Positions 8,551 to 11,772 of a DNA stretch of 64,000 nt are shown piece by piece. The stretch covers positions 37,344 to 101,343 of the forward strand of contig CANRCZ010000001.1 of assembly GCA_947629265.1 (NCBI GenBank), read 5' to 3'. The notes below the pieces were generated by a model. The model saw only the letters and a program-made list of their open reading frames with translations, made no database searches and had not been told where the DNA came from. The translations under genes were made by a program, and so were the position numbers. The stretch is from an uncultured Bacilli bacterium. Lineage in GTDB: Bacteria > Bacillota_I > Bacilli_A > RF39 > UBA660. Within the stretch, counting starts at the first letter, position 1; each line of letters starts with the position of its first letter.

Positions 8551-11500
8551 ATGAAGAAGAAAGGTTTTACTTTAATTGAATTGTTAGCAGTAATCGTAAT
8601 ATTAGCAATCATAGCAATGATAGCAGTGCCAATAGTATTAAACTTAATTGAAAAATCTAGAAGAAATGCCTTTAAAGATAGTGTCTATGGCATTATGGAA
8701 GCAGCCGATCTATTTGTAGTATCAGAAAATTATAATACAAACGATGAAATAGAATTTGTCTGCAATGGAACATCTTGCTCTTTAGATGATGGTAGACAAC
8801 TATCATTTAAAGGAGATGTTCCTATAAGTGGAAGCATTCAAATAAAAGATAAAAATACTTTAGCATATTTTATAAAAAGTAATGAATATTGTGCTTTAGG
8901 TACAAAGGAAAGTTTAGATGTAAATAAAGATTGTACAGAACTAGATTATACGGGAGCTGACTTAGAATTAAAGTTAGTAAAAGCAACAACAAATAGTATA
9001 ATAGTATCATATAAAGCTACAGATGTTGAATCAGGAATATCTAGTGTAGAGGTTAAATTAAACAGTGATGTAAAAAAATTTACATATGATGATAAACCAT
9101 CTATTGTAACTAATGGTGGTACTGGAATATTATTTGATAAACTAGAAAACAATAAAGATTATACAGTAACTTTAACTGTAACAAATGGAAATAAAATAAC
9201 TAAAACTCAAGATTTAAAAGTATCAACTAAAGAAATGAAGAATCCTGATTTAATATCTGTAAACGATCCAACAGATGCTCAAGATGGATATTTTAAAACT
9301 CAAACTATACAAATAGATTTTGATACAGAAACTAAACCAGATTCAGCAAGATACTTTGTTAAAACTACTAAACAAGGTACAAGTAATATAGAGGTTACAA
9401 AGAAATGTGATACTAATGCTGATACAGATACACCAAATATCAATAGTTGTGAAACTATAGATAGTATAACTACTTTAGAAGAAAATGTATGGTATGAAAT
9501 ATCAGGTAACTTAGATGTAAAATACGATAGTACAGATAAAAATAAAGATAAAAATTTATATGCAATGACATATGATGGTACTAACTTTAGTGGAGTAGCA
9601 ACATATAATTTATCTATGATAGATGGAACTAAGCCAACATTAAAATTGGGTGAAATAATATCTAAAACAGATAAATTATCAATAGGATATACCGCAACTG
9701 ATGATGAGTCAGGAATAAAAACAAGAACATGTAATTATGGAACAGAAAGTGGAAAATATACTGAAACAGGTGTGGCATCTGAAACAAATTGTAGTATTAC
9801 AAAATTAAAACCATCAACAACATATTACTATAAAATATGTGTACAAGATAAAGTAGGAAATGAAGAGGTATGTCATGAGGGAAATACAATGACAAATGCC
9901 TTTGTAAATCCAGATCTACAGTCAACTATAAGTCCAGAAAAAGATGTTGATGGCTTTGTAAAAACACAAAGTATAACAGCAAAATTTAATAGTGAAAATA
10001 TGGATGAACCAAATCACTATATAAAATCAACAAGAGAGGGAACAGCAAGCGATAATGTAAAAGAAAGCTGTGGAGATGGTGAAAATCCAAGTAGTTGTTC
10101 AAGCATATCAGAAACAAAAACATTAAGTGCAAATACGTGGTATAAAGTAAATGGAGATACAATTACAGTAACATATGATAAAGCTAGTACAGAAACTAAA
10201 GATACTTTAACAGCCATAACATATGATGGAACTAATTATAGTGGAGTAGCAACATATACATTATCAAAGATAGATGCAACTAAACCATCATTTACAATGG
10301 ATAAATCAAAAATTACATCAACAACAAATAGTATAAAAATACCATATACAGCATCGGATACTGAAACAGGTGTAAAAGTAAGTTGTAAATATGGAACAAC
10401 TGATGGAAATTATGAAAATAGTGGAACATCAGTTGATAATACATGTACAATGTCAGGATTAACAGCAGGTACTAACTATTATTATCAAGTATGTGTTAGT
10501 GATGGTGTAGGAAACGAGGTACCATGTCAAACAGGAAATACATCAACAAATTCAATAACAGCACCAAGTATAACATTAACAACAAATACAACTGGAACTT
10601 TAACAGGTTACGCATTAAAACAAGTAGCAGCAGTAACATTTACAAATACTAATATAACCACCCCAACACATTATATAAAAACAACGAAAGCTGGAACAAG
10701 TAGTTCAAGTGTAACAGAAAGTTGTGGAAATGGAGATAAACCTGGAACATGTACAGGTATAACAAGTACAACAGCATTAGGAGCAAATACATGGTATAAA
10801 GTAAGTGGAAATACAGTATCAGTAACATATGACACACCAAGTACAGCTACTGGAACATTATCAGCCATAACCTATGATGGAACAAACTATAGTACAGTAG
10901 CAAATCAAGATATAAGTAAAATAGAACAACCAGCAACAGGAATAACATTAAATCAAACAAGTGCTACAATAAAAGTAGATGGAACAGTAACATTAACAGC
11001 AACGATACAACCAGCAAATGCAACAAATAAGAATGTAACATGGACAGCAGATAGTTCAGGTGTAGCATCAGTATCAAATGGAAAAGTAACAGGTCTAAAA
11101 GTAGGAACAGCTACGATAACAGCAAAGACAGCAAATAATCATAGTGTAACAGCAAGTATAAAAGTAGAAGCCAAAGGTGAATTATTATATGATAAAGTAT
11201 CTGTTGGAGATTACGTGGCTTATGATGCAGGTGTTTGGAATGAAACTGTAGAAAAAACGACATATAACTCATTTGGCGGATATACAAAAGGCAAAAGTAA
11301 AAATGAAACTGTAATATGTGACAATGATTCTATTTCAATGTATAAAGGTTGGAGAGTGTTGAAAAAAGATGCAGCAACTAAAAAAGTTACTATAATCCAT
11401 GCGGCAACACCTGAATGTTACTATCATGATTGGACAGATGACAGTGTAACTAACTTAAATACACGTGCAAATGAACAATATAAAAACTCATATGCCGATT

Positions 11501-11772
11501 CGGCTCATGCTATGACATATGATGAAATAAAGGAACTAGAAGCACTTGATCCTCATGGTGAATTACTATATTGTCAAGCAGGTTATTGGTTGGCAACTCG
11601 AAACACTGGATCTCTTGGTTACTTGTATAAAGCGAACGGTGCAGGCTCCGTCTCCAGCTACTATAGCGACTTGGACGGTTTCCGCCCAGTAATAGTTCTA
11701 AAATCTGATGTTATGACTACAGGTCGAGGTAAAGATCAAGTAGGAAATGAAAATGCTTGGATATTAGCATAA
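8551..11772 (+). CDS. modular type IV pilin-like surface protein: prepilin signal, FN3-like tandem repeats, Big_2 domain, C-terminal DGR-type CLec-like variable domain
   Basis: Class III signal MKKKGFTLIELLAV with Glu at +5. RBS AAGGAG precedes the 8551 ATG. Three ~220-aa tandem repeats and a Big_2-like segment (VTWTADSSGVASVSNGKVTGLKVGTATITAK). The last ~190 aa are homologous to the DGR target domain (GDYVAYDAG...GFRPVIVLKS). Confidence 0.75.
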   Translation: MKKKGFTLIELLAVIVILAIIAMIAVPIVLNLIEKSRRNAFKDSVYGIMEAADLFVVSENYNTNDEIEFVCNGTSCSLDDGRQLSFKGDVPISGSIQIKDKNTLAYFIKSNEYCALGTKESLDVNKDCTELDYTGADLELKLVKATTNSIIVSYKATDVESGISSVEVKLNSDVKKFTYDDKPSIVTNGGTGILFDKLENNKDYTVTLTVTNGNKITKTQDLKVSTKEMKNPDLISVNDPTDAQDGYFKTQTIQIDFDTETKPDSARYFVKTTKQGTSNIEVTKKCDTNADTDTPNINSCETIDSITTLEENVWYEISGNLDVKYDSTDKNKDKNLYAMTYDGTNFSGVATYNLSMIDGTKPTLKLGEIISKTDKLSIGYTATDDESGIKTRTCNYGTESGKYTETGVASETNCSITKLKPSTTYYYKICVQDKVGNEEVCHEGNTMTNAFVNPDLQSTISPEKDVDGFVKTQSITAKFNSENMDEPNHYIKSTREGTASDNVKESCGDGENPSSCSSISETKTLSANTWYKVNGDTITVTYDKASTETKDTLTAITYDGTNYSGVATYTLSKIDATKPSFTMDKSKITSTTNSIKIPYTASDTETGVKVSCKYGTTDGNYENSGTSVDNTCTMSGLTAGTNYYYQVCVSDGVGNEVPCQTGNTSTNSITAPSITLTTNTTGTLTGYALKQVAAVTFTNTNITTPTHYIKTTKAGTSSSSVTESCGNGDKPGTCTGITSTTALGANTWYKVSGNTVSVTYDTPSTATGTLSAITYDGTNYSTVANQDISKIEQPATGITLNQTSATIKVDGTVTLTATIQPANATNKNVTWTADSSGVASVSNGKVTGLKVGTATITAKTANNHSVTASIKVEAKGELLYDKVSVGDYVAYDAGVWNETVEKTTYNSFGGYTKGKSKNETVICDNDSISMYKGWRVLKKDAATKKVTIIHAATPECYYHDWTDDSVTNLNTRANEQYKNSYADSAHAMTYDEIKELEALDPHGELLYCQAGYWLATRNTGSLGYLYKANGAGSVSSYYSDLDGFRPVIVLKSDVMTTGRGKDQVGNENAWILA
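9241..10920 (+). repeat. about 660-bp tandem coding repeats (FN3-like modules) inside the pilin-like gene
   Basis: Protein repeats begin NPDLISVN..., NPDLQSTI... and a third partial copy. Shared motifs are TYDGTN(F/Y)SGVATY and YYY(K/Q)(I/V)CV. Confidence 0.6.

Follow-up and report, generated by a model that had tools for sequence, protein, structure and literature searches.

Giant modular type IV pilin from an uncultured gut Bacilli bacterium with a predicted C-type lectin-like tip that was probably once templated by a diversity-generating retroelement

The gene at 8551-11772 raises two questions: whether a protein of this size that opens with a prepilin signal is a type IV pilin, and whether its C-terminal C-type lectin-like (CLec) module is, or was, diversified by a diversity-generating retroelement (DGR), an intact copy of which lies 6 kb downstream. 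Both questions were followed in the 64-kb window, i.e., the whole stretch of DNA that was analyzed (Table 1), and among relatives from other genomes and metagenomes.

Table 1. Features of the pilin gene, its surroundings and the DGR in the window.
Feature	Position	Strand	Details
Tandem-HTH (XRE-type) regulator	7879..8397	-	divergent from pilin gene
Promoter-like site TTGTAA-17-TATAAT	8436..8464	+	TG-extended -10; ~87 nt upstream of ATG
Ribosome-binding site AGGAG	8540..8544	+	6 nt before ATG 8551
Modular type IV pilin gene	8551..11772	+	1073-aa product
Class III (prepilin) signal	8551..8631	+	leader MKKKG, predicted cut before Phe6, hydrophobic alpha1-N
Pilin module	8551..8955	+	about aa 1-135
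Stalk repeat 1	8956..9636	+	fn3-like domain and Cys-containing beta domain
Stalk repeat 2	9637..10287	+	
Stalk repeat 3	10288..10920	+	
Big_2 Ig-like domain	10933..11151	+	aa 795-867, Pfam 48.7 bits
CLec/CTLD module	11176..11769	+	aa 876-1073 (~198 aa), predicted fold
VR-equivalent segment of pilin	11569..11690	+	GC3 island
AT-rich hairpin, then T run	11800..11838	+	terminator-like, 3' of pilin gene
DGR target gene	17638..18546	+	paralog of the pilin's Big_2-like and CLec part; VR 18368-18467
DGR accessory protein Avd	19041..19415	+	
DGR template repeat (TR)	19466..19565	+	vs VR: 0 non-A mismatches, 14 at adenines
DGR reverse transcriptase (RT)	19861..20754	+	
CLec-family paralog	22951..23778	-	no GC3 island
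CLec-family paralog	31716..32792	+	GC3 island 0.57 vs 0.22, no match to TR

The start codon at 8551 was preferred over that at 8518 because it is preceded at the given spacing by AGGAG. An identical protein is on record at NCBI (P0001), begins at the same Met and is the only member of its cluster. The promoter-like site upstream of the gene obtained the top score of a promoter scan (10/12), but is suggestive only, as shuffled sequences contained no fewer such sites than the region. With its own terminator-like structure, the gene looks monocistronic. The divergently encoded XRE-type regulator has a paralog in the same arrangement beside the CLec-family (CT-domain) gene at 22951-23778.

The N-terminus reads MKKKG↓FTLIELLAV, where Gly (-1) and Phe (+1) flank the predicted cut and Glu is at +5. 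It was recognized both by Pfam N_methyl (residues 2-25; 29.8 bits, cut-off 21.2) and by NCBIfam TIGR02532 (32.2 bits, cut-off 16.3), and 45 homologs all keep T7, L8, E10, L11 and P27. The identity as a pilin is further backed by 540 homologs that share the N-terminus and stalk but differ in their C-terminal modules. For the pilin module, the predicted fold is a long alpha1 helix (aa 8-58) against a 5-stranded sheet. It is followed by three tandem repeats that recur every 651-654 nt in the DNA (~217 aa each), of which only the first ~90 aa are fn3-like. Pfam fn3 remained slightly under its cut-off of 25 (23.6 bits), and passes in the ortholog P0002 (32.2 bits). The succession of a pilin module, fn3-like repeats, Big_2 and a CLec module is that of a modular pilin. 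Thus, the original prediction of a 1073-aa protein with a class III prepilin signal (Glu at +5), three FN3-like repeats of ~220 aa and a Big_2 segment was borne out, the fn3 likeness being confined to the first part of each repeat. Identity to P0002 drops from 93% in alpha1-N over 70-75% in the repeats to 47% in the CLec module, which suggests that the tip is exposed and fast-evolving.

The CLec module belongs to a family for which there is no Pfam model. Its predicted structure (pLDDT 93) contains the CTLD core fold. The Ca2+ carbohydrate-binding motifs (EPN or QPD, WND) are generally missing from DGR-type CLec domains. Residues 814-1073 align with the product of the DGR target gene (48% identity, E = 5e-66). 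Homology of the last ~190 aa to this target had been claimed beforehand; since the alignment starts at residue 814, it takes in the Big_2-like part as well. The family is lineage-specific, with at least five copies in the window. No relatives of the domain were found in viral contigs, and a phage origin was dropped on this ground. Neither an RT nor a TR-like repeat was found within 10 kb at 20 genome and 8 metagenome loci of the family; the sole match among these 28 loci was weak and Avd-like (L012, no TR). Thus, the CLec family is not obligately DGR-linked.

In the DGR downstream, the VR of the target gene differs from the TR at 14 of 100 positions, every one at a TR adenine. This current target lacks the pilin N-terminus, and a GC-rich hairpin follows its stop codon. 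In the pilin, the VR-equivalent segment is predicted to sit in the last beta-hairpins ahead of GFRPVIVLKS. Compared with the window's TR, it exhibited 24 non-A mismatches, 14 mismatches at TR adenines and a 9-nt insertion, in agreement with the earlier description of a VR-like segment diverged by indels and non-A changes. Over the 72 colinear nt, 12 mismatches were at A and 13 at non-A; since this adenine enrichment is not significant, adenine bias was set aside as a sign of DGR history. In order to find further templates, the window was scanned ungapped on both strands, with only non-A mismatches counted. The scan finds the true TR for the VR (0 non-A), and in the 64-kb window it returned no cognate TR for the segments of the pilin, 31716 or 22951. 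With blastn-short, likewise no second TR was found in the window, and a second TR for the pilin within the window was rejected as both searches were empty. Owing to the 24 non-A mismatches, the 9-nt insertion and the lack of a cognate TR in 64 kb, the window's TR does not currently rewrite the pilin copy.

The codons of the segment carry a different signal. GC3 is 19/40 (0.47) in the segment, compared with 23/131 (0.18) elsewhere in the domain (p = 2e-4) and 0.12 over the whole gene; that of the active VR is 0.60. The C-ending, GC3-rich codons of the pilin loop are foreign to a genome of 28% GC. Such an island is common to the real VR, paralog 31716 and three other pilin-CLec fusions. In 17 homologs without a DGR in their flanks, which have the same conserved flanking peptides, it is absent save for one marginal case (p = 0.02). 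In addition, the segment ends GGTTTCCGCCCAGT (11677-11690), which matches at 13/14 bases the GC-rich, IMH-like 3' end GGTTTCCGCCCGGT common to VR and TR. As the paralogs are nearly saturated at their synonymous sites outside the VR, the GC3-rich composition of the loop appears younger than the paralog split, and the loop would therefore have been written from a DGR template after the duplication. Most likely, the binding loop of the pilin was DGR-templated in the past or may still be templated from elsewhere in the genome, with a fixed former target slightly favored over maintenance by a remote template. This history is read from codon composition and not from a TR/VR pair. Of the two options left by the original prediction, a former target or service by another TR, both are thus compatible with a codon-level signal that favors the hedge as such.

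Combining these observations, the protein is best explained as a modular type IV pilin of giant size, made by uncultured gut Bacilli that are low in GC and have a cell wall, and its lectin tip as one whose loop was once DGR-templated and is now fixed or remotely maintained (probability about 0.65). The protein would be exported, and a prepilin peptidase, its gene lying beyond the window, would cut MKKKG↓F. The small N-terminal pilin module would anchor it both to the membrane and within a type IV filament, where an appendage of ~1000 residues would fit only at the tip. The three fn3-containing repeats and Big_2 would form a stalk that presents the C-terminal CLec module for putative ligand binding. 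The 1073-aa protein is most likely a tip adhesin.

Live DGR targeting of the pilin in trans, from a second cognate TR outside the 64-kb window and with a tip that is hypervariable today, is possible but doubtful. An island younger than the paralog split must have been renewed or maintained, the GC-rich 3' boundary is kept, and about 52 kb of the 115.8-kb source contig and the remaining genome lie outside the window. Remote targets would look like 31716 and the pilin fusions L033, L034 and L036 from other metagenomes, which have the island and no RT in the available DNA. The loop of L033 is colinear with this TR family, with TR codons AAC AAC AAC AAC AAT AAC read as GAC TAC CAC TAC AGT GAC. Against this stand the empty TR searches of the window and the lower GC3 of the pilin segment than of the active VR, as decay predicts. 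No GC-rich hairpin like that of the real target was found 3' of the pilin gene. Moreover, the pilin and 31716 would each require a TR of its own length, i.e., at least three TRs per genome, and the genome may be small (1.31 Mb for the L001 chromosome of a related MAG); several TRs in one genome are unusual for DGRs. In related fusions, near-identical cluster members were few, in clusters that are too small, and their differences were not concentrated in the VR. Thus, of the hypervariable lectin-type tip claimed originally, the predicted CLec fold and the paralogy to a real target stand, while the hypervariability of the pilin copy is only putative. The wider idea that trans-acting DGRs diversify type IV pilus tip adhesins in low-GC gut Bacilli, with the window pilin and the smaller pilin-CLec fusions P0139, P0130 and P0154 as live remote targets, is equally tentative.

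Pfam scans of essentially all ORFs of at least 120 aa yielded no T2SSE, T2SSF or Peptidase_A24 in the window. Sortases, teichoic-acid genes, AddAB and similar were recorded in the same scans. The pilus or Com machinery and the prepilin peptidase expected for a pilin are thus absent from the window, and prepilin processing and assembly are therefore inferred only. Six related giant-pilin genes are likewise orphans amid housekeeping genes, with no pilus machinery such as T2SSE or T2SSF within 10 kb. The prepilin-type N-terminus might serve for export and anchoring only, in a stalked cell-surface adhesin that is never polymerized. This is rather unlikely, although hundreds of very large proteins (up to 1.7-1.9 kaa) join the same N-terminus to unrelated C-terminal modules, are encoded by orphan genes far from assembly genes, and the CLec module is also found behind ordinary N-terminal transmembrane anchors in other proteins. 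The strong conservation of Glu5 and the entire alpha1-N, as well as that of the pilin head, the most conserved part with 91-93% identity to the ortholog, accords better with assembly contacts than with a plain anchor. In addition, the characterized modular pilins PilB and PilC of S. sanguinis are built into pili (PMC8179133, PMC9934059).

Improbable is an ordinary static paralog whose VR likeness reflects common ancestry and whose GC island stems from amino-acid or codon constraint or old gene conversion: it agrees with the missing adenine bias, the 28 loci without RT or TR and the island-free paralog 22951, but the signal lies at third codon positions, so that amino-acid content is no explanation, and neither the 17 homologs nor the saturated synonymous sites elsewhere in the domain fit it.

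Neither modular type IV pilins nor DGR-diversified CLec adhesins are new in themselves. The former include PilB (pilin and vWA) and PilC (pilin and ConA-like lectin) of S. sanguinis (Raynaud et al. 2021, PMC8179133; Shahin et al. 2023, PMC9934059), and a survey counted >1,200 such proteins in 264 architectures (Raynaud et al. 2021). Like PilB and PilC, the giant pilin combines a class III signal and a small pilin module with a grafted C-terminal effector in a monoderm host, with predicted adhesion at the tip. It differs in that a repeat stalk of ~650 aa and Big_2 stand between pilin and effector, in that the effector has a CLec fold and comes from a family of DGR targets without a Pfam signature, and in that the gene is an orphan outside any pil locus. 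With 1073 aa, it also exceeds the most extreme case cited in the survey (860 aa). With the DGR-diversified type V tip adhesins of Bacteroides (bioRxiv 10.1101/2024.11.15.621889), it shares a distal CLec-fold head on a pilus subunit, a gut bacterium as host and a DGR with Avd nearby. Those are type V pilins with a lipoprotein signal and strand exchange, whereas the present protein is of type IV with a prepilin signal and from Bacillota; moreover, the window's actual DGR target lacks the pilin N-terminus, and the pilin copy is only a possible target.

Bordetella phage Mtd and Treponema denticola TvpA (PDB 2Y3C) resemble the module in their CLec-type fold with a variable segment near the C-terminus and in the link to an AAC-rich TR with adenine-only substitutions, here through the DGR-target paralog. 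Identity to them is just ~9-18%, and an N-terminal extension and a post-VR tail of ~25 aa are found here. The N-terminal C-type lectin-like domain of the Thomasclavelia ramosa IgA peptidase (PDB 9QA6; PMC12237041) is likewise part of a surface protein of low-GC gut Bacilli, but shares 18% identity, belongs to a metallopeptidase and not a pilin, and has no DGR association. The combination of pilin and DGR-diversified adhesin on one protein has received passing mention only in DGR surveys, as 'GspG-type pilin' domains, rarely with a VR (PMC11661182), and as 'putative pilin structures' (PMC6642488).

The protein belongs to a large uncharacterized family of giant pilins in uncultured gut Bacilli, with >500 proteins of up to about 1.9 kaa and interchangeable tip modules. 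Should CLec tips on pilins prove to be, or to have been, DGR-templated, the targeted hypermutation of adhesins on pili would reach beyond the type V pili of Bacteroidota to the type IV filaments of Bacillota, and in AT-rich genomes a GC3 island alone could reveal DGR targets that are remote or no longer in use. If DGRs do diversify these tips in trans, Gram-positive bacteria would have a type IV equivalent of the type V tips that DGRs diversify in Bacteroides.

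The original prediction described the ORF at 8551-11772 (+) as a modular type IV pilin ending in a CLec-like domain of the DGR type, and its architecture was borne out. The 1073-aa product, identical to the NCBI record P0001 from a 115.8-kb contig, carries a stalk of three tandem repeats of about 217 aa each (DNA period 651-654 nt), followed by a Big_2 domain. Each repeat consists of an fn3-like domain and a second beta domain containing two Cys. The C-terminal domain (198 aa) had no match in the Pfam search; the CLec fold, named beforehand as the test of the assignment, is predicted for it by modelling. 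The proposed homology to the DGR target was likewise found: residues 814-1073 align with the protein encoded by 17638-18546 at 48% identity (E = 5e-66). Since a promoter-like site precedes the pilin gene and a hairpin with a T run follows it, the gene looks monocistronic. Divergent from it lies a tandem-HTH XRE-type regulator gene (7879-8397, -), whose paralog (23861-24343, +; 33% identity) is divergent from the CLec-family gene 22951-23778. The two may be dedicated regulators of the adjoining CLec-family genes.

Features of the pilin gene, the DGR cassette and the CLec-family paralogs, and further pilin-CLec fusions
Feature	Position	Strand	Remark
Promoter-like site	8436-8464		best of region
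Ribosome-binding AGGAG	8540-8544		6 nt to ATG
Big_2 domain of pilin	residues 795-867
AT-rich hairpin and T run	11800-11838		3' of pilin gene
DGR VR	18368-18467
DGR-cassette ORF	18617-19063		148 aa; only MutS domain I
DGR Avd	19041-19415
DGR TR	19466-19565
DGR RT	19861-20754		short, 297 aa
CLec-family paralog	5-70	+	end only, cut by window edge
CLec-family paralog	22951-23778	-
CLec-family paralog	31716-32792	+
P0139			412 aa; pilin-Big_2-CLec
P0130			323 aa
P0154			923 aa

The gene 17638-18546 is the target of an intact DGR, whose VR departs from its TR at 14 of 100 positions, every one a TR adenine. As called, this gene has a TTG start and lacks the signal peptide or membrane anchor present in homologs. 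A GC-rich inverted repeat (TCCGCCC...GGGCGGA, 18564-18598) lies 18 nt past its stop codon in this 28% GC genome, with a left arm matching the TCCGCCC at the 3' end of VR and TR. It may act as a cis element of the DGR or belong to the DGR RNA; the pilin gene is followed by no such repeat. Between the RT gene and the paralog 22951-23778, an AAA_21 (AbiEii-like ATPase) gene and a glucosaminidase-domain gene occupy 20918-22916.

The VR-equivalent segment of the pilin gene (11569-11690) differs from the window TR by 24 non-A and 14 A mismatches and a 9-nt insertion, in line with the divergence originally noted. The window TR thus does not diversify the pilin copy. Both strands of the whole window were scanned for templates, any change being allowed at template adenines. 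With the real VR, the scan picked up its true TR; with the segments of the pilin, 31716 and 22951, it detected no template in the window, so that the suggested second TR did not turn up there. Since the pilin lacks a TR/VR pair with adenine-only differences, which defines a DGR target, it is not classed as a current variable protein. The original observation is confirmed and its interpretation partly supported: the support extends to the DGR-family CLec domain and to the alternatives of a former target or of service by another TR, but not to hypervariability of this copy.

Codon usage bears on the history of this loop. The 40 codons of the pilin segment have a GC3 of 0.47, that of the remaining domain being 0.18 (Fisher p = 2e-4); the window has a GC content of 27.9%, and GC3 of the whole pilin gene is 0.12. 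The real VR shows 0.60 versus 0.15. Paralog 31716 has a strong island (0.57 versus 0.22), yet no TR match, and paralog 22951 has none. The island was also absent in 17 homologs from other genomes with flanks free of a DGR, bar a single marginal case (p = 0.02). Outside the VR, codon identity between window paralogs at conserved residues (43/67 versus 36.4 expected; 35/63 versus 34.6) was about that expected from codon usage alone; therefore, the paralogs are old, with synonymous sites near saturation. The island of C-ending codons in the pilin gene must then stem from writing or renewal later than the paralog split. The pilin also keeps 13 of 14 bases of the GC-rich 3' boundary common to VR and TR, GGTTTCCGCCCGGT. 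We read the pilin loop as one that was probably templated by a DGR after duplication and would now be either fixed or still supplied by a template lying beyond the window. It seems rather unlikely that DGRs acting in trans diversify type IV pilus tips today.

Three further pilin-CLec fusions, P0139, P0130 and P0154, have a GC3 island (0.45-0.47 versus 0.17-0.21, p <= 1e-3), and no RT was found in the searchable DNA around them. In P0139, the loop aligns colinearly with the window TR, the TR codons AAC AAC AAC AAC AAT AAC corresponding to GAC TAC CAC TAC AGT GAC, the pattern that adenine mutagenesis would give.

For the N-terminal part, pilin plus stalk, 540 relatives were found at E < 1e-5, mostly from gut metagenomes. 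These N_methyl proteins are large (up to 1722 aa among the matches listed) and differ in their C-terminal modules (Flg_new, Gly_rich, GH18, LRR, Big_13 and others). A giant prepilin-type family of uncultured gut Bacilli (P0002-P0120; loci L031, L032, L036 and L037; about 600-1700 aa among the matches listed) has in common the pilin module and a stalk repeat containing fn3, with interchangeable C-terminal modules (Flg_new, Gly_rich, GH18, LRR, ricin-type lectin and others). Among the relatives found, the whole architecture is shared only by the ortholog P0002, with identity falling from 93% (alpha1-N) and 91% (pilin head) to 70-75% (repeats), 67% (Big_2) and 47% (CLec). The CLec domain of P0002 is nearer to other family members than to that of the window pilin. 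This gradient and affinity would fit an exposed tip module that is fast-evolving or exchanged.

The CLec family comprises 226 representatives at E < 1e-3. A prepilin motif starts 21 of the 162 proteins retrieved; others carry ordinary N-terminal membrane anchors. Two members from a Clostridia MAG (L009, 9758-10618; L012, 1317-3917) begin with MKKxxGITL(V/I)ALVVTIV, a prepilin-like N-terminus with Ala replacing Glu5. Related loci came from MAGs of uncultured Bacilli and Clostridia, several named for Hadza, Brazilian (BRZ) or rabbit (Lapin) samples; among the contigs is a complete circle, a chromosome of 1.31 Mb.

Modular type IV pilins are an established class, e.g., PilB and PilC of S. sanguinis; over 1,200 such proteins, with 264 architectures, were counted in a survey, and models put them at the tips of pili (PMC8179133, PMC9934059). 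The window pilin falls within their definition, but is larger than the most extreme example cited in the survey and carries a module type without a database signature. That DGRs diversify tip adhesins of pili has been established in Bacteroides, for type V pili (bioRxiv 10.1101/2024.11.15.621889). For DGRs with type IV pilins, only passing mentions in surveys were found (PMC11661182, PMC6642488).

The search for pilus machinery that had been proposed revealed no prepilin peptidase, extension ATPase or platform protein in the 64-kb window, and genes for relatives of the giant pilin usually stand as orphans in housekeeping surroundings (ribosomal, tRNA-synthetase and glycolysis genes); assembly of the pilin into a pilus is thus a prediction. 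The window encodes a PASTA kinase, SpoIID, sortases and teichoic-acid genes, a gene content indicating a cell-walled monoderm. The region 40912-49472 has three sortase genes, between which lie large ORFs without Pfam match (43119-44447, 45532-46443 and 47109-48695), probably a locus for a sortase-assembled pilus or surface proteins. Thus, the organism may bear two kinds of surface fibre.
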